A stretch of 64,000 nucleotides of DNA, taken from Candidatus Thorarchaeota archaeon (lineage in GTDB: Archaea; Asgardarchaeota; Thorarchaeia; Thorarchaeales; Thorarchaeaceae). Below, in pieces: positions 11,601 through 62,872 of the stretch. A model generated the notes under the pieces. It saw only the letters and a program-made list of their open reading frames with translations. It did no database searches and was not told the origin of the DNA. The translations under genes and the position numbers were made by a program. How positions within the stretch are numbered: the stretch's first letter is position 1; every line of letters starts with the position of its first letter. The stretch lies in NCBI GenBank assembly GCA_021498125.1, contig JAIZWL010000001.1, positions 1,104,099 through 1,168,098 on the forward strand, read 5' to 3'.

Positions 11601-13182
11601 CGACTACGTTCTTCTGAAACGTTTCTTTGTACTTTGGAGGACGGGCGCCCCGTGTCGTTTCAACACGACTACGTTCTTCTGAAACGTAGCTAGGAAATCA
11701 GAGCGCACATAGTCGTAGACGCGTTTCAACACGACTACGTTCTTCTGAAACCCTATACGTTATTTTATTCTCCCGGGAGAAGGAGATTGTTTCAACACGA
11801 CTACGTTCTTCTGAAACGTCATCGGGATTGCGACCTATTTCTTGTGGCCCGGCGGTTTCAACACGACTACGTTCTTCTGAAACTTTGATACTTGCAGTGA
11901 CTCGGAACTTGCTACCTATTGGTTTCAACACGACTACGTTCTTCTGAAACGCAAGCCAGTCTATGCATATAGGCGTTCAGGTGATGGGTGTTTCAACACG
12001 ACTACGTTCTTCTGAAACCGCTGTTGACATGATAGTTTCAGCCTCTCTATGATATCCTTGTTTCAACACGACTACGTTCTTCTGAAACTGAACACAAAAC
12101 TATCAAAAACCGAAATCCTGAAACTGTTTCAACACGACTACGTTCTTCTGAAACTGATTCTGTGATGGTTATGAGACCGTCATCTTCATCATGTTTCAAC
12201 ACGACTACGTTCTTCTGAAACGATCTTGACCGTATTGCACCTCTTGAAATATGAATATGGTTTCAACACGACTACGTTCTTCTGAAACTTCTTCACTGAT
12301 TGGATTTCATTTGCAGTTAGTGATAGTTTCAACACGACTACGTTCTTCTGAAACTCCGCCGATCATCTGCACCAGACCCGAAAACAGACGCGTTTCAACA
12401 CGACTACGTTCTTCTGAAACATGAGGTGTTACAAATGACTGATATTGCACGATTCAGTTTCAACACGACTACGTTCTTCTGAAACTCTCGATCTGTTTTG
12501 AACCACAGATCCGAGATGCGGTAGTTTCAACACGACTACGTTCTTCTGAAACCGGAGAACGTCCTCTTGCTTGGAGAGGCAGGAATAGGGTTTCAACACG
12601 ACTACGTTCTTCTGAAACAGGAAATCATCTTGTCGAGGTCGTTGATGACACATCTTGTTTCAACACGACTACGTTCTTCTGAAACATTCTTAAAGGCGTC
12701 GAGAAGATAAGGGTACCCTAGGGTGATGTGTTTCAACACGACTACGTTCTTCTGAAACGAGCCCTTTTTGATTGAATCTGCACGAGACTATGCGCGAGAG
12801 GTTTCAACACGACTACGTTCTTCTGAAACCGACTCGGACTACGCTTGGTACTACTGGTCATTCTTCAACACGCCTTTTTTTTGTTTCAACACGACTACGT
12901 TCTTCTGAAACGCACACGACTACGTGAACCTTACGACTTGTGCGGTGGACATGTTTCAACACGACTACGTTCTTCTGAAACTTTGGGATTTGGGCTGTGT
13001 TGGCATGATCAGATACTGAGTTTCAACACGACTACGTTCTTCTGAAACGAGTATTGTAGGAACCGATCTCAGTCATGAAACACGAGTTTCAACACGACTA
13101 CGTTCTTCTGAAACCTTGCGAATACTTGGTCCGATGGGGATTATCTCTGATTGGTTTCAACACGACTACGTTCTTCTGAAAC
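8609..13182 (-). CRISPR. CRISPR array with 69 repeats of 29 nt (plus-strand GTTTCAACACGACTACGTTCTTCTGAAAC) and 68 spacers
   Basis: I located every repeat by hand. Most spacers are 36-39 nt, with outliers of 31, 32, 34, 41, 41, 42, 44, 47 and 53 nt. The repeat at 8609 is degenerate (GTCTC...), which suggests the trailer end. A 310-nt non-coding AT-rich region follows 13182. The reverse-complement repeat ends in GTTGAAAC, close to the canonical ATTGAAAC 5'-handle source. Minus-strand transcription is therefore inferred, not proven. Confidence 0.97.
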
Positions 13183-29280: not shown

Positions 29281-31584
29281 TTGGTACAACCACGCGTGTT
29301 GTTAGAAATTGAGGATGATACGAATACGAGCGCAATTGCCGTAGGTGATGTCACGTCATCCGGACGCCCAGAACTTCTTACCGGAGGTCGGGATGGGGTT
29401 CTGAAATTGTATGATGCGAACCAGAGCGAGATCCATCTCTTAGCACAGGCCGATCTTGGTGGTAGCATTCTTGCGGTTCGGATTGCTGATGCCAATAACG
29501 ATGGTCAAATGGAGATAATCGTTGCACGGAGTCTCTCTCCCGGCGAGAGTCCGGGATCTGGAGAGACACTGCAAGTCTATCGATACTCCCCCTCGGGTAC
29601 CTTCGAACTGTTAGGAGCGTATCCTATTGACAGATTTGTGACTACGCTCACGATCACCGACGTGACCGGCGATAATAAGAACGAGATTCTTGCTGGTGGC
29701 AGTGATTCGACGCTCCGTGTCTTGCAGATGGATCCTGACAACAATCTTACCGAGTTTATCAATCATCAGCTACGAGATATGCCTCTGACAATCGGGACCT
29801 GTGATGTTGTTGGTGACGAACATGAAGAGATCGTCATTGGAAACCGTGACAAGACGCTTCATGTGTTGAAGGTTGTTGATTCTTCAATACAAGAGATCGA
29901 TGTGATCGAGCTGCCCAGTCCAGTCATCTCAATTGCTGCCGGTGACCTTCTTGGTGACCGAAAGATGGAGTTGGGTGTAGTCACACATGATGGCTCGATC
30001 CGTGTCTATAGAAATGAAGAGAATAAATTAGAACTCTTCTCCAAACTTGAAAATGCAAATGCTCTCTCGATCCGGATTGCTGAGTTGAATGCGGATCATA
30101 TGGACGAGATCGTTATTGCCACTTCTGATTACAAGATCGACTATTACAATCTGTATATGGCTGAATTGAAAAAGATCGCAACTGTTGAAATTGGTTCAAA
30201 GATCCTCTCGCTTGCGGTTGGAGATGCAGGCGGTGATGACCGACTAGAAGTGCTTGTGGGCATTTCAAATGGTCCTCTCAAGATTGTCGAGGGACTCTAC
30301 CATCTCATTCCACGTTTTCAAGTCAAGCCCAAAGCCGAGTCTGGAACAGGCCTACTTGGAACACTTACCGTACTAAATGTGACCGATCAACCAGTCGCCG
30401 GAGTCACTGGGAAGCTCTACTGGTTCCCGAAAGAGATGATGGAAGTTTCACCTCAGCAGATTCGATTGGACATTGGCCCTCACGAATCGAAGACTATTGA
30501 GATTGATATTCTGCCTCGTGAAGAGGGAACCATTGTCATTCGTCCAATTGTTCTGATGTGGACCGATGAATCGGGAGGTGTCCGACAAGTGACCACTCCT
30601 GAGACCGCGGTCCTTGCTGAGGCTGGTACCGTGACTGCTGCACCAGCTGAAGCACCAGCCGTCACATTGGACGGAGTTGAAGAGTCATCAGCTAGCGATG
30701 AGGCATCCCCTCTCTTCTCTTCTGTCGGTGGAACTGGCTTCAAACCACTTACCGAGGCGGATCGTCAAGAGATTGAGGCACAGGCCTCAGGTACAACAGA
30801 AGATGCAGTACGACAGGCCGAGCAGCTCTTGGACCAGCTCTTTGGCGATGCGAGTACTGATGCACAGGCTGCCCTTGATGATGTGAAACGGATGATCGAG
30901 GGTGAACCCGCCTCTGCTGAGACCGCAACTGCTACAGAAGCTGAGGTCACAGAGGCACCGCCTCCAGTCTCTAATGAGAGCGCACTTGTCGCGGAGATCC
31001 GAAATCGGCCACCCAAGCCTCCTCCACCCAAGGCCGCCCCCGATGCGTATAGTTTCTTGTTTAAGGTCATGATCATTGGTGAGGGTGCAGTTGGTAAGAC
31101 TACCCTCGTCAATCGTTATGTGACAGGTTCGTTCGAACGCGATTACAAGACCACTATTGGTTCTCAGTTTGCCGTCAAGCTGACTCATATCTTCCCACCC
31201 GAGTCAGAGTATGCTGTTGGTATCAAGATACAGGCCTGGGACGTGGCAGGACAGGCGCGATTTGCAGCAGTACGGAAGATGTACTACAGTGGTGCCGCTG
31301 GTGTGATTTTGGTCTTTGATGTCACTCGTCGTCGTTCGTTCACCGAACTGGAAAAATGGGTCAAAGAGGCTGACGAATCAGTTGGCTCGAGAGTGCCAAT
31401 GGTTGTTGTCGGTAACAAGATCGACCTGCCTGATAGAATGGTCAGCGCAGAAGAGGCCAAGAAATGGGCTGAGGATCAAGGGTTTGTGTATATGGAGAGC
31501 AGTGCCAAGACTGGTGAGGGTGTAGCCGACATGTTTACAGTCCTTGCCGAGTTAATGTGGCGCGAGACCAATAACAGCAAATGA
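29281..31584 (+). CDS. Fusion protein: 7 FG-GAP-like propeller repeats, an Ig/CARDB-like domain, an acidic Ala/Pro-rich linker and a C-terminal Rab-like small GTPase
   Basis: Seven units resemble 'AVGDVTSSGRPELLTGGRDGVLKLYD'. In the GTPase, G1 is GEGAVGKT (31078-31101), switch I is YKTTIGSQF, G3 is WDVAGQARF, G4 is NKIDL and G5 is SAKTG. Rab-family-like YYSGAAG and LVFDVT are present. There is no C-terminal Cys. The ORF-track start is TTG 29281, and the true start is uncertain (GTG 29296 is an alternative). Confidence 0.85.
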   Translation: MVQPRVLLEIEDDTNTSAIAVGDVTSSGRPELLTGGRDGVLKLYDANQSEIHLLAQADLGGSILAVRIADANNDGQMEIIVARSLSPGESPGSGETLQVYRYSPSGTFELLGAYPIDRFVTTLTITDVTGDNKNEILAGGSDSTLRVLQMDPDNNLTEFINHQLRDMPLTIGTCDVVGDEHEEIVIGNRDKTLHVLKVVDSSIQEIDVIELPSPVISIAAGDLLGDRKMELGVVTHDGSIRVYRNEENKLELFSKLENANALSIRIAELNADHMDEIVIATSDYKIDYYNLYMAELKKIATVEIGSKILSLAVGDAGGDDRLEVLVGISNGPLKIVEGLYHLIPRFQVKPKAESGTGLLGTLTVLNVTDQPVAGVTGKLYWFPKEMMEVSPQQIRLDIGPHESKTIEIDILPREEGTIVIRPIVLMWTDESGGVRQVTTPETAVLAEAGTVTAAPAEAPAVTLDGVEESSASDEASPLFSSVGGTGFKPLTEADRQEIEAQASGTTEDAVRQAEQLLDQLFGDASTDAQAALDDVKRMIEGEPASAETATATEAEVTEAPPPVSNESALVAEIRNRPPKPPPPKAAPDAYSFLFKVMIIGEGAVGKTTLVNRYVTGSFERDYKTTIGSQFAVKLTHIFPPESEYAVGIKIQAWDVAGQARFAAVRKMYYSGAAGVILVFDVTRRRSFTELEKWVKEADESVGSRVPMVVVGNKIDLPDRMVSAEEAKKWAEDQGFVYMESSAKTGEGVADMFTVLAELMWRETNNSK

Positions 31585-42623: not shown

Positions 42624-42675
42624 TGAGATATGGCCTTCGGAGACCGTGTTTTCTCATTCCTCCCAAGAGTTATTT

Positions 42676-43896
42676 ATGTTAGTACGAATTATTTCGATGA
42701 TTGGAATGAGGAAATCTGTGCTCGTTTGTCTTATTGCGTTCATGATTGTGTTTGCAGGTGTGATATTATATTATTATACGCATCGGCCAATACATCTCAA
42801 TGCTACAGTTGTCTCACAACTGACAGGCCAAGATGCGCTTAACAATACGCAGACTGTTGATGTCAATGGAACAGACCTTGGGATTGTGTTCGATCATCAA
42901 GGTATGCTCTACTACATGTTTGGCGACACGTTCGGTTGTGGTACTGGGTTCGCGTTGAACTGGCGTTCTAACACACTGGCCTATTCTACTGACACCGATC
43001 CAAGTGATGGGATCATGCTCAAAGGCTGGATCATCCAACCACGCTCAACGTATGCAAAGGAATTGATTGGAAGTCTGAAACAGGATAATGTCGAGATGAC
43101 CTCCATTCCCACAGCCGTCTATTCTGACAACCACACGATCTACGTCTACTATATGAGTGTCAAACATTGGTCCTCAACTGGTGGAATGTGGACATGTAAC
43201 AATGCAAGTATTGCGTACTCTACAGACAATGGTCAGAACTTTGTCAAGGCGGGGAATATCAGCTGGCCCGGCGACAGTAATTTTGTGCAATTCGGTGTTG
43301 CTCAAGGAGCTCCTTCTGATCAACTCATATCCTCTGGTGACTACATCTATCTGTTGGCCACCGGAAGTGGTCGTTTCAAGGGGGCCTATTTGATGCGTGC
43401 TCCCAGAAATGCCCTGCTCAATCAGCTTGGTTACTCGTATTTTGCAGGTCTCAATTCGAGTGGTGGTCCCACTTGGACATCGGACATGACTCAGGCTCAG
43501 TTGGTTCTCCAGAAACCTGTTGGTGAACTCTCAGTGATGTGGAACTCGTACTTGAACAAGTGGACTGTGTGGTACACTAATAATGTAGCCTTTGCAATAA
43601 CACTACGAACTGCTGATAATTTATGGGGCCCATGGAGCGATCCGGTCATCGTGGCCGACGCCAAGACATACCCTGGTCTATACGGATCATATGTGCATCC
43701 TTCTCTTGTAGAAAAGAGTGGTTCTGTTGTATATTTCATTATGAGCCGTTGGAGCGTCTACAACACCTTTGTCATGCGTGTTGATCTATCTCCGATAGGG
43801 CCACCTGTCAGGGCCACAACTCTATCTCCCCAAATGTATGCAATTCCCCGATCGCAGTTTCGAGACCTCTTCTTCGCTTCAACATTACGATTATAA
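42676..43896 (+). CDS. DUF4185-domain protein (sialidase-like beta-propeller, putative glycan hydrolase), membrane-anchored
   Basis: An N-terminal anchor (VLVCLIAFMIVFAGVILYYY) is present. The segment 'VNGTDLGIVFDHQGMLYYMFGDTFG...WRSNTLAYSTD' matches the DUF4185 hallmark. The ORF opens at GTG 42646, and the first ATGs are at 42676, 42697 and 42706. Confidence 0.6.
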   Translation: MLVRIISMIGMRKSVLVCLIAFMIVFAGVILYYYTHRPIHLNATVVSQLTGQDALNNTQTVDVNGTDLGIVFDHQGMLYYMFGDTFGCGTGFALNWRSNTLAYSTDTDPSDGIMLKGWIIQPRSTYAKELIGSLKQDNVEMTSIPTAVYSDNHTIYVYYMSVKHWSSTGGMWTCNNASIAYSTDNGQNFVKAGNISWPGDSNFVQFGVAQGAPSDQLISSGDYIYLLATGSGRFKGAYLMRAPRNALLNQLGYSYFAGLNSSGGPTWTSDMTQAQLVLQKPVGELSVMWNSYLNKWTVWYTNNVAFAITLRTADNLWGPWSDPVIVADAKTYPGLYGSYVHPSLVEKSGSVVYFIMSRWSVYNTFVMRVDLSPIGPPVRATTLSPQMYAIPRSQFRDLFFASTLRL

Positions 43897-44377
43897 GCTC
43901 TGTCTGTTTGATTGCCAGCGAATCACATTGTCTTTGGAATTGGGTTCGAGCATAGGCATTGGATTGGACATTGCAGAGGTCAATAGGTTTCGAAGCTTGG
44001 GTGTCACACACCCCTTCTTTACACGTGTCTTTACGGTTTCCGAACGCGACTACTGCATGACATACTCCGACCCATTTCCCCATTTTGCAGGGCTATTTGC
44101 TGCAAAGGAGGCCGTGATAAAAGCACTCTCTCATCAGGCATATCTTCCCCTACAGAGAGTTGAGATCCAACATTCTCCCTCAGGTTCCCCTCAGGTCAGT
44201 GTCCCTGTTACTATTACACGGTCTATCATTCTGAGTATATCTCATTCCAGCCAGTATGCTGTTGCAGTGGCTCTCTCCCTGAGCCCGAATGGCACCATCG
44301 ACCCCGACGAATTGCATCTCATGATCGAGACTCTTGCTACTAAAGCACTGCCAATGGAGGTTTCCCAAAGTGAGTGA
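43838..44377 (+). CDS. acpS: Holo-[acyl-carrier-protein] synthase (AcpS-type 4'-phosphopantetheinyl transferase)
   Basis: The segments 'IGIGLDIAEVNRF', 'VFTVSERDYC', 'FAGLFAAKEAVIKAL' and 'ISHSSQYAVAVAL' fit the AcpS pattern. The conserved domain starts near TTG 43928/43940, so the true start is probably downstream of ATG 43838, which overlaps the previous gene by 59 nt. Confidence 0.75.
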   Translation: MQFPDRSFETSSSLQHYDYKLCLFDCQRITLSLELGSSIGIGLDIAEVNRFRSLGVTHPFFTRVFTVSERDYCMTYSDPFPHFAGLFAAKEAVIKALSHQAYLPLQRVEIQHSPSGSPQVSVPVTITRSIILSISHSSQYAVAVALSLSPNGTIDPDELHLMIETLATKALPMEVSQSE

Positions 44378-46199
44378 GAAACTTGCCAAACTATTAGGAG
44401 TCGTCCGGACAGATCCTTCCTATCTTAACTTATGGAGCACCTACAAACGAATCCAGACAATGGATCTCCCCACCCCAGACGACCTTAACAAGATCGTACG
44501 GCTTGCAGTCATTGGGTCATCTACACTCGAACCGCTGGCAGCCTGTGTGGATGTCAAGACACGACTGCTTGGATTATTCCCCATCACCTTTGTTGGTGGT
44601 TTCAACACCTATCGGCAAGAGGCCCTTGATCCCTCTTCTCCATTGTATGCTCACAATGCTGATGTGATCATTCTATCCGTGGACGCTTGGTCTCTGCTAG
44701 GTCAGATGTTTATAGCCGAGTTTGTGAGAATGTCTTCTGACGATAGGCGTGCCGCCTTTCAGAAGATTGTTGATGATGTTGCTTCTGTGGCCGAGGCTCT
44801 TGAAACGAAGACATCCTCTCTCATCCTCGTCAATAATTTCATTGTTCCAACTTTTACTCCCTTGGGTCTTGTGGATAACAAACAGGCGTATGGTCTTCGT
44901 GATCTCTTTCGAGAGGCGAATGCTCAACTAGAAGAGCGATTTCGTGCCACGAGCCGAGTCTTCGTTGTGGATCTTGATACTGTCGCAGCCTCTTTTGGTA
45001 AGGCGAATGTAGTCAATTGGAATACCTACTATCGTGGCTCAGTCCCGTTCAGTGAGGGATTCACGCCCATACTTGCGGATGAGTATTTACGGTATATCCG
45101 GGCTCTAAAAGGCCTGACGAAGAAGTGCATAGTTTTGGACTTGGACAATACGCTCTGGGGCGGGATCATCGGGGAAGACGGCATGGAAGGGATCAAGCTT
45201 GGAAATACCTCTCCCGGTAACGAGTTTGTAGATTTTCAGAGAGCATTACTCTCACTGTACAATCGTGGTGTGATTCTTGCTGTCAATAGCAAGAACAATC
45301 CTGATGATGCTCTTCAAGTGCTTCGGGAGCACCCGTATCAAGTGCTTCGTGAGGAGCATTTTGCAGCTCTCAGGATTAACTGGCAGAGTAAGGTGCAAAA
45401 CCTCATAGAGCTTGCTCATGAGATCAATATCGGTCTTGACAGCATGGTCTTCATAGACGACAATCCCGTTGAACGTGAGCAGGTCCGACAGGCACTGCCA
45501 GAGGTTCTGGTTGTAGACCTTCCAAAGAATCCACGCCTCTATCGCGCCACACTTGAGGATCTTCATGTCTTTGATGTTCTCTCCCTCACGGCTGAAGATA
45601 TGCGTCGTGGGGAGATGTACGTGGGTAAGCGGAAACGTGCCGAGCTAGAGCGATCAACAGGGTCTCTTGAGGATTTTCTCAAAACACTGGATCTGAAAGT
45701 TCGCATTAAGCTTGCTGACGATTTTGATACCCCGCGAGTGGTTCAACTTATCGGCAAGACCAACCAGTTCAATCTCACGACCCGCCGGCACACCGATGCC
45801 GAAGTCCAGCAGTTTCGCAAGTCGCCTGATCACCGTGTCTATAGTCTGGCTGTCCGCGACCGCTTCGGGGACGAGGGAGTTGTCGGTGTGGCGATTACTC
45901 GTGCTGAGAAGACTGACTGGATCATTGACACACTTCTGATGAGTTGCCGTGTCATAGGTCGTAACATCGAGACCGCCTTTCTTGCGAAGATTATTGCTGA
46001 TGCACGCGAGGCAGGTGCGAAGCGTCTTGTCGGAGAGTACATTCCAACAAAGAAGAACGCTCCAGCGAAGGACTTGTATGAGAGGCACAACTTTACGCTT
46101 CTCGGTACTGAAGGCGATGTGACACGTTGGGCCTTGGATATCACAGAAAAGACCATTGAAGTACCTGAATACATAGAACTTGTCGAGGAATGGCCATGA
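44334..46199 (+). CDS. FkbH-like HAD-IIIC phosphatase / acyl-ACP loading enzyme with C-terminal GNAT-like domain
   Basis: The HAD motif I is 'CIVLDLDNTLWGG' (about 45127-45165). The segments 'ILAVNSKNNPDDALQVL', 'INWQSK' and 'MVFIDDNPVEREQV' match the FkbH/TIGR01686 pattern. An alternative start, GTG 44370, overlaps the acpS stop. Confidence 0.75.
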   Translation: MLLKHCQWRFPKVSEKLAKLLGVVRTDPSYLNLWSTYKRIQTMDLPTPDDLNKIVRLAVIGSSTLEPLAACVDVKTRLLGLFPITFVGGFNTYRQEALDPSSPLYAHNADVIILSVDAWSLLGQMFIAEFVRMSSDDRRAAFQKIVDDVASVAEALETKTSSLILVNNFIVPTFTPLGLVDNKQAYGLRDLFREANAQLEERFRATSRVFVVDLDTVAASFGKANVVNWNTYYRGSVPFSEGFTPILADEYLRYIRALKGLTKKCIVLDLDNTLWGGIIGEDGMEGIKLGNTSPGNEFVDFQRALLSLYNRGVILAVNSKNNPDDALQVLREHPYQVLREEHFAALRINWQSKVQNLIELAHEINIGLDSMVFIDDNPVEREQVRQALPEVLVVDLPKNPRLYRATLEDLHVFDVLSLTAEDMRRGEMYVGKRKRAELERSTGSLEDFLKTLDLKVRIKLADDFDTPRVVQLIGKTNQFNLTTRRHTDAEVQQFRKSPDHRVYSLAVRDRFGDEGVVGVAITRAEKTDWIIDTLLMSCRVIGRNIETAFLAKIIADAREAGAKRLVGEYIPTKKNAPAKDLYERHNFTLLGTEGDVTRWALDITEKTIEVPEYIELVEEWP

Positions 46200-46432
46200 G
46201 CAGCACCGATGAACGACTGGTAGAGATCGTTAGCAAGGTCCTCTTGCTCGATTCGGAACAGGTGACAGACAGTCTCCGCAGAAAGGAGTATGAGCCGTGG
46301 GACTCCATGGCCCACCTTGTCCTCATCTCGGAGATCGAGAACGAATTTGGAATCTTCTTTGAAGACGAAGAGGTCGCTGATATCTGGACAGTAGGTGACT
46401 TGAGAAAAGTTCTGGCCTCAAAGATCAGTTAG
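46190..46432 (+). CDS. Acyl carrier protein (phosphopantetheine attachment WDSM motif)
   Basis: The protein is 80 aa, acidic and four-helix-like. In 'EPWDSMAHLVLISEIENEFGI' the Ser codon is at 46304-46306. The start overlaps the FkbH stop (ATG 46190, or ATG 46196 forming ATGA). Confidence 0.75.
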   Translation: MAMSSTDERLVEIVSKVLLLDSEQVTDSLRRKEYEPWDSMAHLVLISEIENEFGIFFEDEEVADIWTVGDLRKVLASKIS

Positions 46433-46898
46433 TCTCGTTTTGCTTTACGGGCTGGCGTTCAAGTCTCTGGACCATTCTTGCAGGATTCCCGGCGACCATT
46501 GTCCACGCTTGGACATCACGGCTGACCACTGCTCCAGCCGCCACAATTGCTCCCTTTCCGATTCTGACCCCGGGCAGGATAATTGCTCCACTGGCGATCC
46601 ACGCGCCGTCCTCAATGACGACCTTCTTTGGCGGATTGCTATAAGCTCCTGTAAACCTGTGGTATGGACTTGTTCCCGAATGGGCCATGATCTGCACGCC
46701 CGGACCTAATGAGACCCAATCGCCAATCTCGACCATGTCTGGATGTTCACTGTCGATCTGAACAAGATAACCCATAAAGACCCCCTTGCCAATCTTGACA
46801 CCACATCTTCGATGCACCGCTGCACGAAATTGCCAGAACGGCGAGAGCCACGCCAAGACTCTGAGAAGTCGTCCCATCAGTTTACCCATTCTAATCAC
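46425..46898 (-). CDS. Hexapeptide-repeat O-acetyltransferase (WcaF/Maa-like)
   Basis: The segments 'VKIGKGVFMGYLVQID...VEIGDWVSLGPGVQIM' and 'VVIEDGAWIASGAIILPGVRIGKGAIVAAGAVVSRDV' are present. Confidence 0.8.
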   Translation of the reverse strand: MIRMGKLMGRLLRVLAWLSPFWQFRAAVHRRCGVKIGKGVFMGYLVQIDSEHPDMVEIGDWVSLGPGVQIMAHSGTSPYHRFTGAYSNPPKKVVIEDGAWIASGAIILPGVRIGKGAIVAAGAVVSRDVQAWTMVAGNPARMVQRLERQPVKQNETN

Positions 46899-47739
46899 TT
46901 CTTGTCAAATAGTATTTCCAGATCTGTCTGCGTAGGTAATCTGAGAACACCCAATTATCAATGTCTCCTGTCAGAAGAAGACAAAATGAGGCACCATCTC
47001 TCCATTCACCCTTTTGTTTCCATTGTTGTACAGCCTCTGTTGGAGTAGGACACCACCCGTTTAGCTGTGTAGCATATTCGACAAGTTCTCTCAGGCAGCC
47101 AACATATTTCCGCTGGCCGATTCTGATTGGGTGCAGGTCGAACATGATGACCCCTCTATGCATGGATGCCTTCTTGACCTCATGCTTGAGCCGACGTGTG
47201 ATCTGTGGCGGCGTCATTCCAAGCGTGTCGATCATTCTATCATCGCTCCACACATTTAATGGAATGAAGACTGTGTCCGATTGCCTGCCATCGATAGGTA
47301 CCTGAAAGAACTGTGTTCTCTCCCGGTGTTCAGGTCTATACCCGAGACCTCCGTCCCAGATTAGTCCGTGTCTATCTATGAGTTCCGGCATGTCGTCTGT
47401 GTAATTATCATAGGGTGCACGAAAGCCTGTGATCTTCACGCCTATCTTTTGAAAGGCCTGCAGGCTTCTACGAAAGTCCTCTTCTCTTGCACTCGCTGAG
47501 ATCTGTGGATATCTGATATGATTGAACCCATGACTGGCCACTTCGTGACCCGCATCAGTGATCATTCTGATAAGGTCAGGTCTCATAGTGGCAACAGCAG
47601 CCACCGTGGGAAATGCGAACTTGGCATCGAAGGGTTTGAGGGTCTCAATTATATTGTTTAATAATTCTTTGAATGGTCTTCTATGAAGACTCATCATCTT
47701 GATAAATTGACGTGGGGCTCTGACGCCCCAACGTTTCAC
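46891..47739 (-). CDS. Polysaccharide deacetylase (NodB homology / CE4 family)
   Basis: The segment 'FAFPTVAAVATMRPDLIRMITDAGHEVASHGFNHIRY' and a later 'FRAPY' are characteristic NodB motifs. Confidence 0.8.
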   Translation of the reverse strand: MKRWGVRAPRQFIKMMSLHRRPFKELLNNIIETLKPFDAKFAFPTVAAVATMRPDLIRMITDAGHEVASHGFNHIRYPQISASAREEDFRRSLQAFQKIGVKITGFRAPYDNYTDDMPELIDRHGLIWDGGLGYRPEHRERTQFFQVPIDGRQSDTVFIPLNVWSDDRMIDTLGMTPPQITRRLKHEVKKASMHRGVIMFDLHPIRIGQRKYVGCLRELVEYATQLNGWCPTPTEAVQQWKQKGEWRDGASFCLLLTGDIDNWVFSDYLRRQIWKYYLTRSD

Positions 47740-47834: not shown

Positions 47835-48743
47835 TCATTTGGCAATGAATTCATGAGCAATGAGTTCAAACAGCTCGTCTGTATATTGACGATCGACCTT
47901 TGCTTGGATATAGTTGCAGAGTTCAATGAAGTCCTTTGTTCTTGCATCTGCATCTGCACTACTGGCCAATATCTTCTTGGTAGTCTTGACCACCTGTCGA
48001 ACGACATTTTTGGCATGTTTGTACTCCTTCACAACCTTTGCAGTCTCCTGTTCAATCCTCTGTATCTGGCTCTTTATCCTGATGTCTGAGATCTTGTCAC
48101 TTCCTAGCGACTTAACGAGATCCATCAATACATCAAGGATGCCGTTCTGAAGCCCCGCTATTAATGCCTCGATCTCATAGGCTGTGAACTTTATCTCGGT
48201 CTCATTTACGGTGATCGACCATTTCAGATCACTGCTTCTATTGATTGTGATTTCTCGGTCGTCTATGTTCATATGTTCGACATAGAACCTGCTATCAACG
48301 CTGCTCACCAGAGAAGTCTTGAGCAGTGCCGCCTCCGTAATCTTGATCTTGGCACTCTGTCCACCATTCATGATGACAAGACAGAGACCGTTCTGTGGCT
48401 TGACCTTTTGGACATAATCTGATGCAGGGGCGACCTCGACAGGTGGAAGATTCTTGAGCAATTTTGCGAGATCACGTACTTCCCTTTCAGTCATGAAGTA
48501 CTGCTGGTTATCACCTGCAATCACGATAGTTCCATCTTCACTTCGTTCAAACTGAATTTTGTTGCCTCCGCCTACACCCGTTGTCTTGTGATAGACCTGT
48601 TTGTAGTTTCGGGCGGTCTGAGCAAGTTTCTCTAATGCTGCTGCTACCATATGGGCTTCTCCATACCCAATTGTGATCTCAGCAGATCCATCCGTGGCGC
48701 GACCGATGCCTAATGCACCATCTCTCCTTATCTTGACGTACAT
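47835..48743 (-). CDS. Hypothetical protein with three repeated beta + helix modules and a helical C-terminus
   Basis: It is a long ORF on the same strand as the two upstream genes. Recurrent units are 'AEITIGYGEAHMVAAALEKL', 'YFMTEREVRDLAKLLKNL', 'AKIKITEAALLKTSL' and 'IKFTAYEIEALIAGLQNGI'. The ORF opens at 48812, but ATG 48743 (MYVKIRRDG) is the likelier start. Confidence 0.6.
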   Translation of the reverse strand: MYVKIRRDGALGIGRATDGSAEITIGYGEAHMVAAALEKLAQTARNYKQVYHKTTGVGGGNKIQFERSEDGTIVIAGDNQQYFMTEREVRDLAKLLKNLPPVEVAPASDYVQKVKPQNGLCLVIMNGGQSAKIKITEAALLKTSLVSSVDSRFYVEHMNIDDREITINRSSDLKWSITVNETEIKFTAYEIEALIAGLQNGILDVLMDLVKSLGSDKISDIRIKSQIQRIEQETAKVVKEYKHAKNVVRQVVKTTKKILASSADADARTKDFIELCNYIQAKVDRQYTDELFELIAHEFIAK

Positions 48744-48854
48744 GATTAGACCCACTCTGACGTACGGGTTACTACAAAAAACTGTTGTGCATACAACATC
48801 AAGGTAGAACAAGTGCGCAGAAGGCTGTCCACCTTCTGCGAAATCAACTGTATA

Positions 48855-49214
48855 TCATATCGAGTCAGTGACATCGAACTTGAGGGTTCCTGCCTCCTTA
48901 GTCTTCAGGGCGATGTCGATCTTGTGTTCGCCTGCTGCTAAGGGATCCCCCTCAACTCGTAAGGTGATGTCTACCCCGACCTTTATCATGAATGGGCTGC
49001 TCTCAGAGACCTCTGAGGCCTTGACCTCAACGCCTTCCGCCTCGATAAAGGTGCTATCTAGAGGAATCTCCACATCGTCAATCTTGATTGGCTCCATCCC
49101 GATGGCTGTGCCTTGGGAGAGAGCGTTTTTCAGTTTGAATGAAAAGCCCTTGTCTGTATTAGTAAGGCTTTTCTTGACATAGAGCTTCCTCAATAGGAAA
49201 CTTGGAATCTGCAT
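48855..49214 (-). CDS. Hypothetical small beta-rich protein (119 aa)
   Basis: GGAGGA lies 7 nt upstream of ATG 49214, and a TATAAAAA-like box lies about 40 nt upstream on the minus strand. I recognise no motif. Confidence 0.6.
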   Translation of the reverse strand: MQIPSFLLRKLYVKKSLTNTDKGFSFKLKNALSQGTAIGMEPIKIDDVEIPLDSTFIEAEGVEVKASEVSESSPFMIKVGVDITLRVEGDPLAAGEHKIDIALKTKEAGTLKFDVTDSI

Positions 49215-57730: not shown

Positions 57731-57889
57731 GATTTTGACCCCGTGATTCACTTGTGTGTTCTTTTGATTTCTTACGGATGAGTTGGTTGCTGGATTTGGC
57801 TTTTTAATGGTACTGTTTGGTTTGTTCTGTTCTGGTTCGCCTTTACGTTTATAGGGGCGCTTAGTCATTGAAGTATTGTGAATTTAGTA

Positions 57890-60085
57890 ATGACCATTGA
57901 AACGCAGATCGTTGACTTGTTTCGAGAAGTTCTTGGTGGCGCAGAAGTTGTAACAGTATCCGGACGTACAGCTCTCCTGAATCTACGACGACTATATTTT
58001 CAGCAATCAGTAGAGCCGTTTCTCTCACAGGTTCTCGCCAACGTTCCTCACACTTCGTCACGCCCAATGGTATTGCAAATGGTTCACGATTTCTTTTCAA
58101 TAGCCTTTGAGATACTGTATCACTGTAAGACATCTGAGATGATCCGTCTGAAATTGTGTCCAAAGAATTCTCTACCCTTCTGGGTTGCGGATCAGTTCTA
58201 CTTCATGAAGACTAATCCGGACACCCATCCTTTGGATATGACAGTAGATGATATTGTCTTTAGATTTGACACGATCCGAGTCGAGGCCAGTATTGAAGCC
58301 GTGCCCAAGCTCTCTTACTCGTTTGAGGGGATTAAACAAGGGGTCGTATACATTGGAGTGATGAGGTCTCGACGGGTATGGAAAGGGGTACATCGTCTCA
58401 CACAAGATATTCGTAAGGCAGGACTAACTGTTTCAAAGAACGCCGTCTCAAAGGCGATCCGTATTTTTGAACAGCAGTTTCAAGTTGACTACTTTCTTGC
58501 GAAAGACCCGGTGCGCCTTCTCCTTCATTTACTTCAAGGCTGGTCAGTTGAAAGGATGACCACTTTTCGGGATGAAGCTGCTGTGATCGATACTTTCGAA
58601 GATGTGGTCCGTTCTCTCATTGATATTATCGCTCCTTTCGAGCAGGCACTCACGAGACTCTGGGAGCGACCAAAGCCTGTGAACTCCCCACATTATGTGA
58701 TTACACTCGATAAGATAGCTGCAAAGTCTCCTGAGATATTGATAGCACTCTTTCGTCATCGCGGAATGATTCAACAATTAGGTGAATGGATTGACCTCGG
58801 GTTAGTTTCTTCTGAGGACATACTTGATGCAATACTGGTCGCTTCCACTTCTGGCCCGCCTCATCTCAATGAGCAATACGTCCATCTGCCTATTGATACA
58901 CGATACTTTCCGGAACTTGAGTCTTCCATCGGCGATCTCTTGGACAATGATGATGAATTAGACGGTTGGCTTGTACATAGTGATAATTTTCAGGCGCTCA
59001 ACACGCTTCGCGAACGTTTTGAAGAATCTGTCAAGACCATCTATGTGGATCCTCCGTTCAACAAAGACTACAATGCAGGATTTTCTTACACGGTCAACTA
59101 TAGTGACAGTGCTTGGGTCACATTACTTGATAACCGCTTTAGGATCGCACGAGGTCTTCTTCGCTCAGATGGTTCTATACTTGTTCGCTGTGATTCAAGT
59201 GGAAATATGTATGTGCGACTATTAATGGATGACATCTTCGGACGTGATAACTTCAGAAATGAGATCCATGTCAGGCGCTTCAGGAAAAATGTCACGAGTC
59301 AAGTGGTTCGTAAATTGCCTGCCGGACTGGACACGATCTTTGCCTATGCCAAGTCTGATGCCTTTGCATATGTGAATCCGGTCAGGCCACGGAAAAAGAT
59401 CCGTAAGGGCTTCTGGAGACATATGAATGACTCCTCTGGAGCTGGAACCCCCAAGACATTTTTCGGAAGAACGATTGCGCCGCCTGTTGGAAAACATTGG
59501 AAATATTCACAGCGACGGATCGACAAGATGATTGAGGAGAATAAGATCGTCCTTCAATGTGGACAATGCGGGCATTTGCATACCCGTGACGATGGGCAAT
59601 GGGATGGCTGTCCAAAGTGCGGTGCCGATGATCCTGTACCACGATATTGGGTGAGTGAGAAGGATGTCGATGTTCTCGACTCCAATTGGAGTGATATCTA
59701 CGGGTACTCTACAACTTGGGGCTTTCAGACCGAAAACTCGGAGCCGCTCCTGCAACGGATCATTGAGACCACAAGTCATGTTGGTGATCTCGTGATGGAC
59801 TTCTTTCTTGGAAGCGGAACGACCGTTGCTGTGGCGCAGAAACTACATCGTCGTTGGATCGGTGTCGAGATGGGCGATCACTTCTTTACGACTGTGCTGC
59901 CTCGAATGAAACAGGTTCTTGCAGGAGAGCAATCTGGGATCTCAAGCGAGGTCGGTTGGCGTGGTGGTGGGGCTCTCACGTATTTTTCAGTGGCACAATA
60001 TTGGGATGTTGTTCAGCATGCAATTCTGAATGGTTCCCAAATATATGAAAAAATTAGTAAGGCCGAAACAAGAGGTTCGTCATGA
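57890..60085 (+). CDS. Beta-class N6-adenine/N4-cytosine DNA methyltransferase (N6_N4_Mtase family) with a long N-terminal domain
   Basis: Motif IV 'VDPPF' (about 59045-59059) precedes motif I 'DFFLGSGTT' (about 59798-59821), the beta-class order. A zinc ribbon 'CGQCGH...CPKCG' is inserted at about 59560-59625. The ORF opens at GTG 57878, and the first ATG is at 57890. Confidence 0.85.
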   Translation: MTIETQIVDLFREVLGGAEVVTVSGRTALLNLRRLYFQQSVEPFLSQVLANVPHTSSRPMVLQMVHDFFSIAFEILYHCKTSEMIRLKLCPKNSLPFWVADQFYFMKTNPDTHPLDMTVDDIVFRFDTIRVEASIEAVPKLSYSFEGIKQGVVYIGVMRSRRVWKGVHRLTQDIRKAGLTVSKNAVSKAIRIFEQQFQVDYFLAKDPVRLLLHLLQGWSVERMTTFRDEAAVIDTFEDVVRSLIDIIAPFEQALTRLWERPKPVNSPHYVITLDKIAAKSPEILIALFRHRGMIQQLGEWIDLGLVSSEDILDAILVASTSGPPHLNEQYVHLPIDTRYFPELESSIGDLLDNDDELDGWLVHSDNFQALNTLRERFEESVKTIYVDPPFNKDYNAGFSYTVNYSDSAWVTLLDNRFRIARGLLRSDGSILVRCDSSGNMYVRLLMDDIFGRDNFRNEIHVRRFRKNVTSQVVRKLPAGLDTIFAYAKSDAFAYVNPVRPRKKIRKGFWRHMNDSSGAGTPKTFFGRTIAPPVGKHWKYSQRRIDKMIEENKIVLQCGQCGHLHTRDDGQWDGCPKCGADDPVPRYWVSEKDVDVLDSNWSDIYGYSTTWGFQTENSEPLLQRIIETTSHVGDLVMDFFLGSGTTVAVAQKLHRRWIGVEMGDHFFTTVLPRMKQVLAGEQSGISSEVGWRGGGALTYFSVAQYWDVVQHAILNGSQIYEKISKAETRGSS

Positions 60086-60190
60086 CTACATGCTGCGAGA
60101 GCAATCTTACAGACATATGCCCTCTTCTTGCCCTGCATGTTTCGGCCAATCACATTATATGCTCTGTTTCATCGCATAGATCATTGGTTG

Positions 60191-62872
60191 CTACGAGTCT
60201 TTCGATTTAATTACTATTATAACGACTATTGCCACTACTCCAAGTCCTATTACAGCTCCCAATGGAATCATTGTCGAAGGTGATGCAAGGATTTCAGGAT
60301 TCTCTATATTTGTAGTATTGCTGGCAGTAGAACTACTAGTTGTAGTAGAATCAACTGTGGTAGTGCCACTAGTGGATGTCTGTTGTCCGGTTGTTGTGGA
60401 TGTTGTTATTGGTTCATTGACCGCAAGTGACACAACTTTATTGTATCCTGTTGATGTTTCCGCCGAAATTGTATGCTCATCACTAGATGCAGTGATATCT
60501 GGAAAGGTACCAACATCAAAGTTCATGTCTTCCACAAATCTGTTTAATGTATTTGTAAAATTGACATTGACCTGCCAGTCGGTTGCAAAGTTTAGATTGT
60601 ATTTCATATTTGTCAGTTTGACTCCGGAATTTTTGGTCCCACCAATAACATCAATTTTGACATCATGGTGTGTTTTTCCCTCAGTAAAGTCGAGTTTTGA
60701 TTTACTTAGTTTGATTGCAGCATTTTCGGTTTCCAAGTTTGCTGTCATTGAACCTGAAATTTTAGGTTGGGCAACAATGTATACATCTGATACAAAATAC
60801 TTCAAAGTGTTTATCGCCCCACCAACTGTTGATGCGCCCAAAAGGTCTGAGAGGATACGCAATAGATGTATCTTTAATGTGCAATCAAGCATCGTTGAGA
60901 GAAGATCCGCGCTTGTGGAGAAGTCTGATACTGTGAACCACCCTTGGTGATAGTTTCCTGTCAAACTTTTTCCAGAAAATCCTATCGCAGATACAAGTTC
61001 AGCAATATCGTCTAGGTTTACGGATAATTCGTAATTGCCCTTATATGTTGCATTTTTCTCGAAGTGAATGAACCACCAATGGAAGACATATCCAAGGTTA
61101 ATTTCGTAGTCAAATTTAATGATGATTTTGTTTTGTGACAAGGTCAGATCAATACCCATATCATATGTATTTCCTGCAGTAACTGTACTTGGAATATTCA
61201 ATGAGATTGTTGCTGGGACTATAAATGATAGCCCCAAATCGATATCATAATACAATCCATTTTGTTTGTAATTTTGAGCAGATTCGGTATAATGCACTAC
61301 CTCTTCATAACTATCAACAACATATGGAAATACAAAGGGATTATGTAACATATCCAAGGTCAATGACATATTCTCTGGAACTCTATAATCCGCTCCATTC
61401 CATAGGTTGGCCCCCTCATAGACATTTATGTCTGATTGAAATGCTTCATCCAGATGTAGATACCCTTGATCGATAATATCCTTTGTCAAAGGTTCCAAAT
61501 AGGGCAAAGTGGCCTCTACACTTCCAAGAGGTATTCCTAATTCCATCTGATGATATGTATTTGTTATCGACAAAATTGGTACCTGCATGTAGGGTGTCAC
61601 TCCATGAGTAGTGGACCAGTGGTATGCAGGTTCGGAAAAATACGTATCAGTTACAGTATAGGAAACGTTGCACGAATCTCCTAACAATGGGGTCAAATTT
61701 TCTGAAACTGACATGTATGCGATTCCTGTTTTTGATGAAGCATATTGGTCTTGAATAACAAGTTTTGGAGGTAGTGTGTGTGATCCCACATCTCTGTAAA
61801 CAATTCTGTAGGGCTCTGAACCAATACTCTTCACAAAAAGCAGCAACGGTTCGTAGTCATAATAATGTCCAAAATTCACTCCAAAATTATCTGTTTCATG
61901 ATCCCAGTAAAATAAGTAATAAATCACATATGCATTTTGACTGATAGAGGAATCGTATCCATAATACACCTGTTCGTAAATGGCCTTTATTGGTACATTA
62001 TCTGCTGCATCAAAATGGTCCAAATAGATTTTCGGCAGATACACATTAGCAATAAGCCACGATCCATCGGCAGATGTTGTAAAATCTGATGGGAATGATA
62101 AGGTTTCGATATTGGAAAATGAAATGGTAATGTATACTGCTAGTTGGACATCGTTATTCCCTCCATCTGGGGGATAATCATTCAGATATACCCACCCACT
62201 ACTGGATCGGGAAGAATATCCATTTAGATTATACCAGATGATCTCACCACCCATGTAGTCATCATAATCCACATCAGACTCCCATCCATCAATTTTGATG
62301 GAGAACCAGCCATTCATACTATAGAGTCCTTTATCAATTGAAATAGATGTGGATATGTAATCCCCGTCATTTCCTACGTAGAAGTTTCCGTCATTATCAC
62401 ATCTATAGTCCGCATAATCGTAATCATTAAGGCGAATATTAAGGTAAACTTCTCCTGCTCCAAAGTCGCGGTCTTCGATGATGTGTATTTTTGTAATAGA
62501 TATGCTCACATCGGTATAGACAACATCTACGTCAGTTACTCGTGTTACTCCATCTGGTAGGTAGTCTTCTATGCTATTGATGACATCCTCTGCTGAACGT
62601 GGGCCATAATCCTTTTGATCAATATAATTACTGGCATGGAATGATTTTGTCAATTGAAATTCAACATCACGTGAAACAGAAGTATATGCAATTTGTTTCA
62701 TATCATTTGGGGATATGTTCTGATTTTGGATATCTCCTGTTCCAGACACACTTGGCGCAAAGGCTGTAAAACATACTATAATCATTACTAGTGCAATAAT
62801 TGCCCTCAACCGTATCACCAAAGAATAATTATCATAGTCACTATTATATATTATGTGTTGATATTCATACAA
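60191..62872 (-). CDS. Large secreted surface protein with Thr/Ser-rich stalk and C-terminal TM anchor
   Basis: A signal-like N-terminus (AIIALVMIIVCFTAFAPSVSG) is present. The C-terminus is 'TTSTTTGQQTSTSGTTTVDSTTTSSSTASNTT' followed by 'IPLGAVIGLGVVAIVVIIVIKSK'. The DNA is markedly AT-rich. Confidence 0.8.
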   Translation of the reverse strand: MYEYQHIIYNSDYDNYSLVIRLRAIIALVMIIVCFTAFAPSVSGTGDIQNQNISPNDMKQIAYTSVSRDVEFQLTKSFHASNYIDQKDYGPRSAEDVINSIEDYLPDGVTRVTDVDVVYTDVSISITKIHIIEDRDFGAGEVYLNIRLNDYDYADYRCDNDGNFYVGNDGDYISTSISIDKGLYSMNGWFSIKIDGWESDVDYDDYMGGEIIWYNLNGYSSRSSSGWVYLNDYPPDGGNNDVQLAVYITISFSNIETLSFPSDFTTSADGSWLIANVYLPKIYLDHFDAADNVPIKAIYEQVYYGYDSSISQNAYVIYYLFYWDHETDNFGVNFGHYYDYEPLLLFVKSIGSEPYRIVYRDVGSHTLPPKLVIQDQYASSKTGIAYMSVSENLTPLLGDSCNVSYTVTDTYFSEPAYHWSTTHGVTPYMQVPILSITNTYHQMELGIPLGSVEATLPYLEPLTKDIIDQGYLHLDEAFQSDINVYEGANLWNGADYRVPENMSLTLDMLHNPFVFPYVVDSYEEVVHYTESAQNYKQNGLYYDIDLGLSFIVPATISLNIPSTVTAGNTYDMGIDLTLSQNKIIIKFDYEINLGYVFHWWFIHFEKNATYKGNYELSVNLDDIAELVSAIGFSGKSLTGNYHQGWFTVSDFSTSADLLSTMLDCTLKIHLLRILSDLLGASTVGGAINTLKYFVSDVYIVAQPKISGSMTANLETENAAIKLSKSKLDFTEGKTHHDVKIDVIGGTKNSGVKLTNMKYNLNFATDWQVNVNFTNTLNRFVEDMNFDVGTFPDITASSDEHTISAETSTGYNKVVSLAVNEPITTSTTTGQQTSTSGTTTVDSTTTSSSTASNTTNIENPEILASPSTMIPLGAVIGLGVVAIVVIIVIKSKDS

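Follow-up and report, generated by a model that had tools for sequence, protein, structure and literature searches.

We characterized five genes at positions 43928-47739 of a 64,000-nucleotide stretch of DNA from a Candidatus Thorarchaeota archaeon (assembly GCA_021498125.1, contig JAIZWL010000001.1, positions 1,104,099 to 1,168,098; the whole stretch is called the window below) as one unit. The genes code for an AcpS-type phosphopantetheinyl transferase (PPTase), an FkbH-like loader, an acyl carrier protein (ACP), a left-handed beta-helix (LbH) acyltransferase of the hexapeptide type (Hex) and a CE4-fold deacetylase-like protein (PDA). The unit is a long-established, clade-wide feature and not a recent import. 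With moderate confidence we read the locus as a self-priming, carrier-protein-dependent acylation module for glycan tailoring, and the evidence favours a link of this tailoring to N-glycosylation. An earlier note on this DNA, made from the sequence alone, had described the first three genes as a self-contained cassette; the Hex and CE4-like genes belong to the unit too, and its end is at 47739 rather than at 46432.

Conservation and genomic context of the five genes

The five genes are as follows.

43928-44377, plus strand: AcpS-type (group I) 4'-phosphopantetheinyl transferase, ~149 aa; PF01648, TIGR00556 and alignment to 1f7t
44370-46199, plus strand: long-form FkbH-like loader, 609 aa; TIGR01686; FkbH_N, HAD-IIIC and C-terminal GNAT-fold domains
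46196-46432, plus strand: dedicated ACP, 78 aa; PF00550 and alignments to solved ACPs
46425-46898, minus strand: Hex, left-handed beta-helix acyltransferase of WcaF/Maa/YvoF type, 154-157 aa; PF00132, 3e-14
46891-47739, minus strand: CE4-fold deacetylase-like protein, 282 aa; PF01522, 5e-15; directly upstream of Hex, in the same operon

The genes of AcpS, FkbH and ACP are tightly coupled, as had been proposed earlier: AcpS overlaps FkbH by 8 nt and FkbH overlaps ACP by 4 nt, and in relatives the gaps between these genes range from -4 to +6 nt. The Hex gene, with start candidates GTG 46898 or ATG 46889, is convergent with the ACP gene and overlaps its end by 8 nt.

The pair of Hex and CE4-like genes is conserved in all thorarchaeal loci. 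As synteny within one class is weak evidence, we traced the partners outside Thorarchaeia. The thorarchaeal order is AcpS-FkbH-ACP convergent with Hex-PDA. A Bathyarchaeota-labelled genome and two other archaea have VOC-PDA-Hex convergent with ACP-FkbH-AcpS, where VOC is a further small protein described below. In Heimdallarchaeota CP070760 (locus L091) and a related genome (L008) PDA-AcpS-FkbH-ACP is convergent with VOC-Hex, while Heimdallarchaeota LC_3 has PDA-Hex convergent with ACP-FkbH-VOC. In the genome GCA_016840025 (L094) PDA, Hex, FkbH and ACP follow each other on the same strand, Hex overlaps FkbH, and AcpS is convergent; in Hodarchaeales Hex-VOC is followed, after a gap of ~3 kb, by PDA-AcpS-FkbH. 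The five proteins are co-orthologous across these lineages with 36-66% identity, Hex being the best kept outside Thorarchaeia (53-66%). Since the gene set is kept while order and orientation shuffle, the five genes are likely to be functionally coupled. Within Thorarchaeia, FkbH forms >120 clusters (90% identity) at 65-85% identity, and nearly all the named ones carry a Thorarchaeota label.

A wider view was obtained from a sample, not a census, of GTDB genomes: 80 loci, the top-ranking among >600 tblastn hits to a Heimdall-type query. The non-Thor subset has 77 loci, mostly from Bacteria (taxonomy from the GTDB genome scan). ACP is directly downstream of FkbH, within 30 nt, in 55 of the 77. 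AcpS is adjacent in every module-bearing archaeal locus examined except Heimdall LC_3, and in 7 of the 77 non-Thor loci, from Nanoarchaeota, Micrarchaeota, Methanospirillaceae, a bacterium of the candidate phyla radiation (CPR) and three ordinary bacteria. This distribution fits, in part, the idea that the module supplies a PPTase to hosts lacking one; the three ordinary-bacterial cases do not fit.

The oligosaccharyltransferase gene AglB/STT3 is beside or close to the module in four archaeal lineages (L087/L088, L091, L092 and L094). At another archaeal locus (L089) the module adjoins genes for a GT4 phosphosugar transferase, a UDP-glucose dehydrogenase and a sugar nucleotidyltransferase, and in a Marine Group I thaumarchaeote FkbH is beside Hex, a CE4 gene, two nucleotidyltransferases and a GT2. 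In the bacterial part of the sample the two nearest genes per side code mainly for glycosyltransferases, sulfotransferases, epimerases, MBOAT proteins, methyltransferases, SDR/KR, MaoC, VOC and hexapeptide transferases; megasynthase domains of polyketide synthases (PKS) or nonribosomal peptide synthetases (NRPS) are not prominent among these neighbours. The glycan rather than polyketide destination suggested in the earlier note fits both the AglB/STT3 adjacency and the bacterial neighbourhoods. Its observation that PKS, NRPS and ketosynthase (KS) genes are not adjacent also holds, as none was found in the window or in the conserved synteny. No KS, acyltransferase (AT), adenylation or condensation domains were detected in the 64-kb window, and no FkbI/FkbK-type dehydrogenases, FkbG O-methyltransferase or FabH-like tetronate synthase in the window or the archaeal module loci. 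In Campylobacter jejuni the fkbH-domain gene cj1302 is situated within the flagellin glycosylation locus (PMC7099621), and the flagellin bears glyceric-acid derivatives of pseudaminic acid (PMC3068675); from these circumstantial data we infer that cj1302 is responsible for the glyceric-acid modification.

Two further proteins appear near the module. A small VOC/Glyoxalase_4 protein of the methylmalonyl-CoA epimerase family is a sixth partner in L087, L089, L091, L092, L095 and L008, and is also present in ~10 bacterial FkbH-ACP loci; its gene was searched for in the window and not found, and one thorarchaeal locus, L009, has it (11208-11792). The VOC protein may be an epimerase acting on an ACP-bound 2-hydroxyacyl unit. 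In the window, a 325-aa protein without Pfam match is encoded at 47835-48812 (minus strand), directly upstream of the CE4 gene and on the same strand. It is kept in thorarchaeal genomes (E ~1e-114 to 1e-124), not in the Heimdall or Bathy module loci, and may have been added to the operon in Thor only, or be unrelated to it.

Catalytic features of the encoded proteins

Profile searches with PF01648, TIGR01686 and PF00550 supported the identities given earlier to AcpS, the FkbH-like protein and ACP. The sites and motifs that matter for function are listed below.

44356-44360, plus strand: GGAGG, Shine-Dalgarno-like motif 9 nt before the FkbH GTG start, read from the sequence
45138-45152, plus strand: HAD motif I DLDNT of FkbH (Asp257/Asp259), invariant in alignments A1 and A5
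45288-45299, plus strand: HAD motif SKNN of FkbH (residue 307), invariant in alignments A1 and A5
45456-45467, plus strand: HAD motif DDNP of FkbH (residue 363), invariant in alignments A1 and A5
45945-45947, plus strand: codon of FkbH Cys526 in SCRVIGR, candidate acyl-S-enzyme site, invariant in A1 and A5
46304-46306, plus strand: ACP Ser37 codon TCC (Ser39 of the 80-aa ORF) in EPWDSMAHL, phosphopantetheine attachment site, aligns to the DSL serine
46957-46971, minus strand: TGDID at the C-terminus of the CE4-like protein, invariant in the 35-sequence alignment A4
47128-47142, minus strand: FDLHP of the CE4-like protein, invariant in alignment A4
47410-47421, minus strand: RAPY of the CE4-like protein, invariant in alignment A4
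47518-47535, minus strand: SHGFNH of the CE4-like protein, invariant in alignment A4

The FkbH protein matches TIGR01686 with E = 2e-97 and 326 bits (cutoff 146.65), HAD-IIIC with 1e-22 and FkbH_N with 2e-9. The maximal open reading frame (ORF) is 44334-46199; the likeliest start, GTG at 44370, gives 609 aa, to be compared with 604-611 aa in >100 homologues, and from this start the overlap with the AcpS stop is 8 nt and not 44 nt. Besides the motifs listed, Lys341 and TNQFNLTT are invariant in diverse FkbH alignments. Cys526 directly precedes the GNAT pantetheine-binding motif RxxGxx and is kept in 148 of 150 family representatives, including FkbH domains embedded in megasynthases (proteins of 2,500-5,600 aa). 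A sequence search of the PDB returned a single structure, Bacteroides fragilis BF1531 (3slr), covering the N-terminal and HAD domains (E = 3e-47). These two domains of the AlphaFold 2 (AF2) model, which has a mean predicted local distance difference test (pLDDT) value of 76, match the same structure (Foldseek E = 3e-23). The C-terminal domain (~170 aa) matches many GNAT acyltransferases in a fold search, with target-normalised template modelling (TM) scores mostly 0.55-0.75.

It is known that OzmB (366 aa) converts 1,3-bisphosphoglycerate (1,3-BPG) through phosphoglyceryl-S-enzyme and glyceryl-S-enzyme to glyceryl-ACP (PMC9057759), a loading step common to tetronate pathways (PMC7489565). To judge by its sequence, the window FkbH carries every feature required by the OzmB chemistry, with Cys526 as the candidate acyl-S-enzyme site. 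The N-terminal domain (~250 aa) is extra to the short PKS-type enzymes, and in the sampled loci the long form is found chiefly outside PKS contexts.

The AcpS protein matches PF01648 (E = 3e-17, 63 bits, cutoff 25) and TIGR00556 (62.4 bits, cutoff 45.35). It aligns to Bacillus subtilis AcpS 1f7t (E = 4e-10; also to 1f80), with the Mg-binding Asp of GIGLDI and the Glu/Lys of AAKEAVIK kept. It scores under the cutoffs of the housekeeping holo-ACP synthase equivalogs (TIGR00516, 48.8 vs 59.8; NF000832, 53 vs 107) and is a divergent, module-specific enzyme. The longest AcpS ORF (ATG, 43838-44377, 179 aa) runs into the upstream DUF4185 gene; the likelier starts are TTG 43928, 43934 or 43940, for a product of 145-149 aa, and relatives have 149-150 aa. 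The DUF4185 gene (42646-43896, plus strand, 3e-82) is inserted between a helicase gene and AcpS and is not at this position in the other thorarchaeal loci examined. A TATA-like ATTATAAG at 43890-43897, at the 3' end of the DUF4185 gene and ~30 nt upstream of the likely AcpS start, was spotted by eye.

For ACP, an ORF of the 80 aa stated earlier does exist (46190-46432), while the likeliest product has 78 aa and starts at ATG 46196 in an ATGA overlap with the FkbH stop. The match to PF00550 is marginal (20.9 bits vs the gathering cutoff of 20.8). The protein matches 60 ACPs in the PDB, best Aquifex 2ehs (E = 1e-6, residues 4-77), and its WDSM aligns with ADSL of the Aquifex and other type II ACPs, by which the serine codon at 46304-46306, as indicated in the earlier note, was confirmed. 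The serine motif is kept in all module ACPs. The protein falls below the housekeeping AcpP equivalog; the top-scoring NCBIfam ACP model gives 33 bits (cutoff 71).

The Hex protein scores 52 bits with PF00132 (cutoff 27) and retains the conserved His in MAHSG. Its best NCBIfam matches are the YvoF and WcaF types, with equal scores, and Maa is also among the best; the top model is heptaprenylglyceryl phosphate O-acetyltransferase (3e-19, far under cutoff). The model of the acyl-ACP-dependent LpxA gives 3e-8 only, again far under cutoff, and Hex is placed outside LpxA/LpxD. Module-type Hex proteins (>=53% identity) are set off by a score gap from the next relatives. The nearest non-module relative examined is encoded in a Mycobacterium, in an aminosugar locus that has two DegT aminotransferase genes but neither FkbH nor ACP.

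The AF2 model of the CE4-like protein (pLDDT 92) matches the CE4 folds 3rxz (Foldseek 9e-11, TM 0.71), 3cl6, 3qbu and 8t0j, i.e. the ~300-aa PuuE/HP0310/PA1517 subgroup; ArnD, the lipid-linked aminoarabinose deformylase, was also matched. The family is narrow (317 hits), and every relative whose context was examined adjoins the module. The motifs HxxxH, RAPY and DLHP are invariant. The C-terminal TGDID, preceded in the model by a beta-strand (252-257), is probably CE4 motif 1 (TFDD) relocated by circular permutation. A pseudoenzyme without motif 1 had been considered; this was dropped after the C-terminal TGDID was seen to be invariant in the 35-sequence alignment.

A putative glycan-tailoring pathway and its alternatives

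The protein identities, catalytic residues, gene coupling, conservation and neighbourhoods described above suggest a scheme in which the substrate, the acyl unit, the enzyme offloading ACP and the acceptor are predicted. AcpS would convert apo-ACP to holo-ACP on the Ser of 46304-46306, and we consider it highly probable that AcpS primes this ACP. The module would need an AcpS of its own, as a fatty-acid-synthase (FAS) ACP system is lacking in the archaeal host. FkbH would take a phosphorylated C3 glycolytic intermediate, most likely 1,3-BPG, form an acyl-S-Cys526 intermediate on its GNAT-fold domain, strip the 3-phosphate with the HAD domain (Asp257/Asp259) and hand the glyceryl group to holo-ACP; by analogy with OzmB, loading of a glyceryl unit from 1,3-BPG via Cys526 and the HAD phosphatase is slightly favoured. 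Hex would then move the ACP-borne unit to a sugar of a nucleotide-linked or dolichol-linked glycan precursor, a step that we see as an even call. The CE4-like enzyme might deacetylate the acceptor first, in a deacetylate-then-reacylate order as in LpxC/LpxD, and from this analogy such a preparatory role is conceivable, if somewhat doubtful. The acceptor is probably a precursor of an N-glycan or other surface glycan, and a glyceroyl-type decoration on that glycan would be the end product; in lineages with the VOC gene the acyl unit may be epimerised too. The proposal in its full form is an ACP-dependent glyceroyl (or related C3) decoration of an N-glycan or dolichol-linked sugar, common to Thorarchaeia, Heimdallarchaeota, Hodarchaeales and the Bathyarchaeota-labelled lineage, and made by a permuted CE4 enzyme and a Maa/WcaF-type Hex switched in donor from acyl-CoA to acyl-ACP. 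In this form it must be regarded as tentative.

Several known systems resemble parts of the module. The FkbH/OzmB glyceryl-ACP loaders of actinomycete polyketides (methoxymalonyl-ACP and tetronate pathways) share with it the strong TIGR01686 match, the HAD DxDxT motif, the Cys and a small dedicated ACP nearby; the predicted chemistry, from 1,3-BPG through acyl-S-Cys and dephosphorylation to glyceryl-S-ACP, is the same. Unlike these enzymes (~366 aa), the window protein has 609 aa with the additional N-domain, and unlike their operons the module has an archaeal host, LbH and CE4 partners, and no PKS, FkbI/K, FkbG or FabH-like partners. B. fragilis BF1531 shares the architecture of N-domain plus HAD, and the setting of BF1531 and of cj1302 is likewise a glycan locus and not a PKS cluster. 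Most bacterial long-form FkbH loci are without an adjacent AcpS because the host has one, and they usually pair with SDR, MaoC or VOC, not with CE4 and LbH.

With LpxC/LpxD, where a deacetylase bares a sugar amine and an LbH transferase re-acylates it from acyl-ACP, the likeness is one of analogy only: LpxC is non-homologous and has a fold other than CE4, Hex is in the Maa/WcaF branch, and the predicted unit is C3 and not a 3-hydroxy fatty acid. In the Dlt system (DltA/DltC/DltB/DltD; D-alanylation of teichoic acid) a dedicated carrier and loader also deliver a small acyl unit to an envelope polymer, and MBOAT genes adjoin some bacterial FkbH-ACP pairs; however, the Dlt loader is adenylating rather than HAD/GNAT, the Dlt unit reaches its extracellular polymer via a membrane MBOAT, a protein that the archaeal module lacks. 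Housekeeping AcpS/AcpP are similar in PPTase fold, catalytic residues, ACP size and the DSx serine. They differ from the module proteins in the sub-cutoff scores of the latter, in the ACP motif (EPWDSMAH vs GADSLD), in the ~30-aa C-terminal extension of the module AcpS and in the lack of FAS genes at the module.

While FkbH-ACP loading modules are already known, what is new is the archaeal, Asgard-wide, AglB-linked setting and the predicted use of acyl-ACP by a Maa-type LbH transferase. A literature search returned no paper on FkbH-like genes in archaea, on ACP in Thorarchaeota or on the five-gene module. If the glycan-tailoring reading is true, the module would be the first pathway dependent on a carrier protein to be conserved throughout entire archaeal classes, and it would produce a new archaeal glycan modification linked to AglB; it predicts a sugar modification so far unseen. 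The ACP, its activator and its loader are conserved throughout one Asgard class and are also present in the Heimdall and Hod lineages, which are closer to eukaryotes than any other known group. An ACP in an Asgard genome need not mean fatty-acid synthesis, which corrects a reading of such genes as 'bacterial-type lipid genes'. The five proteins also make a compact system for a first assay of long-form FkbH, which has thousands of bacterial members in capsule, lipopolysaccharide (LPS) and flagellin-glycan loci.

Several considerations weigh against the glycan-tailoring reading. To our knowledge there is no biochemistry for any long-form (~600 aa) FkbH-like enzyme; substrate and product are extrapolated by analogy from 366-aa PKS-type enzymes, and the FkbH N-terminal domain could itself be the offloading catalyst. 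Hex is closest to the acetyl-CoA-dependent O-acetyltransferases WcaF, Maa and YvoF, not to the acyl-ACP-dependent LpxA/LpxD, and we know of no Maa-type LbH enzyme that uses acyl-ACP. In the CE4-like protein the canonical N-terminal TFDD is missing, and the permutation that would make up for it with TGDID is putative. No AglB or glycosyltransferase gene was found within the 64-kb window, and a geranylgeranyl reductase is among the thorarchaeal neighbours, which would allow a lipid acceptor. No glyceroylated archaeal glycan is known to us, and a search for sequencing runs returned DNA runs alone, with no transcript data.

One alternative is that Hex and the CE4-like protein perform ordinary acetyl-CoA-dependent O-acetyl/deacetyl tailoring, with the ACP-borne unit offloaded by the FkbH N-domain or by an enzyme encoded elsewhere. 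It would account for the kinship of Hex with the CoA-dependent Maa/WcaF, for an N-domain specific to the long-form FkbH and its non-PKS contexts in the sampled loci, and for most sampled bacterial FkbH-ACP loci being without an adjacent Hex. Still, we find it unlikely: Hex is the best-kept module gene outside Thorarchaeia and overlaps FkbH or ACP in several arrangements, the module-type Hex is a distinct group, and no second candidate acyltransferase is kept alongside the module.

Alternatively, the LbH transferase could acylate an isoprenoid ether lipid (its glycerol or head group) rather than a glycan. B. subtilis YvoF acetylates heptaprenylglycerol, and the top NCBIfam model of Hex is of this kind; a geranylgeranyl reductase gene is 4 kb upstream in all thorarchaeal loci, and ArnD, among the fold matches, is a CE4 enzyme for a lipid-linked sugar. 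However, WcaF scores equal those of YvoF for Hex, and the geranylgeranyl reductase neighbourhood is Thor-only, with AglB/STT3 and sugar-nucleotide genes in its place in the Heimdall and Bathy loci. By these comparisons a lipid acceptor is quite unlikely, and a dolichol-linked glycan intermediate would reconcile the lipid and glycan readings.

It would be very improbable for the module to feed a polyketide or tetronate-type metabolite whose biosynthetic enzymes are encoded at other loci. The FkbH enzymes with characterised biochemistry do all act in PKS pathways (PMC7489565, PMC9057759), and some members of the family are embedded in megasynthases; yet no KS, AT, ketoreductase (KR)-module, FabH-like or methoxymalonyl dehydrogenase/methyltransferase genes were found in the 64-kb window or the archaeal module loci, and the conservation is class-wide and housekeeping-like, unlike that of accessory biosynthetic gene clusters. 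We give hardly any credence to a role of ACP and AcpS in fatty-acid, lipoate or biotin metabolism, such as supplying octanoyl-ACP to the lipoylated E2 whose gene is 10 kb distant. Genes for the 2-oxoacid dehydrogenase E2 and an LplA-type lipoate ligase are indeed in the window at 55-58 kb, but a ligase of this type takes free lipoate, no KS, MCAT or LipB was found, ACP is under all housekeeping AcpP cutoffs, and its coupling to FkbH is seen at all archaeal module loci examined and at the majority of loci in the wider sample.

Origin of the module and other features of the window

The context of the locus is archaeal. A profile search of the window detected an archaea-specific ThrRS editing domain, geranylgeranyl reductase and a fusion of a Ras-family GTPase to a propeller, and homologues of the window proteins carry the Thorarchaeota label. 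Archaeal genes are on either side of the module, and the contig on which its own FkbH protein is recorded has 1.55 Mb. The tetranucleotide signature of the module correlates with that of the window at r = 0.84 (54th percentile of equal-sized windows), and its GC content of 0.49 is host-typical. The gene order helicase, AcpS, FkbH, ACP is found again in independently assembled genomes, one of them the 3.16 Mb record CP070761. The FkbH family is largely bacterial and ACP and AcpS are atypical of archaea, but because these composition and synteny results contradict it, the possibility raised earlier of a bacterial contaminant or assembly chimera, or of a very recent transfer, can be practically dismissed.

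The statement of the earlier note that ACP and AcpS are generally absent from archaea agrees with the literature, where ACP and its synthase are reported missing from most archaea, with sporadic bacterial acquisitions (PMC3533463; bioRxiv 10.1101/2024.07.05.601840). The proposed horizontal acquisition holds only in a deep sense, as the FkbH family is mostly bacterial; as to a nearer event, the module is Thorarchaeia-wide, common to the Heimdall, Hod and Bathy lineages and host-like in composition, and no donor can be named. The long-form FkbH family has 15,225 representatives (50% identity) at E<=1e-3. In the GTDB sample its members come mostly from bacteria and sporadically from archaea. In our trees, which are neighbour-joining only and have unresolved deep nodes, the thorarchaeal FkbH clade appeared in 100% of bootstraps. 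The Thor, Bathy-type and one Heimdall-type FkbH grouped at 96% before two more Heimdall sequences were added; monophyly of all module-bearing archaeal FkbH was seen in 29 of 60 bootstrap replicates. FkbH copies of Nitrososphaeria, DPANN and Methanospirillaceae were placed elsewhere, among bacteria. This pattern agrees with several inter-domain transfers. In the case of the five-gene module it is consistent with a single old origin, after which Asgard and Bathyarchaeia lineages inherited or exchanged the genes. An old bacterial origin of the segment is plausible, with neither donor nor direction established by the trees. One locus, L005 (GCA_048885165.1, JBHLQD010000041.1), has the NCBI label Odinarchaeota, yet shows thorarchaeal synteny and an FkbH inside the Thor clade; probably the genome is taxonomically mislabelled or affected by a binning problem.

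Rfam and tRNA scans of the window gave no matches, and a scan for sigma-70 promoters and terminators was disregarded, as its models are not applicable to an archaeon. At 8609-13182 (plus strand) there is a large CRISPR array with 69 copies of the 29-nt repeat GTTTCAACACGACTACGTTCTTCTGAAAC (chance expectation 0) and spacers of ~37 nt; the scanned ORFs on its flanks included no recognisable cas genes. The array accounts for the atypical composition and the lack of long ORFs at 8-14 kb. The fusion mentioned above (29281-31584, plus strand) joins a Ras-family small GTPase (Pfam Ras, 3e-47) to an FG-GAP/BBS2/BBS7-like beta-propeller, and a 2256-aa protein (1765-8535, plus strand) has bacterial TSP3 repeats and a BBS-like propeller; the two resemble 'eukaryotic signature' architectures of the Asgard type. 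An N6/N4 DNA methylase gene (57878-60085) adjoins an 893-aa ORF without Pfam match (60191-62872, minus strand; GC 0.38 vs 0.48), and the region 57878-62872 may be a foreign restriction or defence island. A stand-alone 119-aa protein (48855-49214, minus strand), which matches the N-terminal domain of HMG-CoA reductase only (PF25653, 1.5e-23), is kept at the same position in other thorarchaeal loci.

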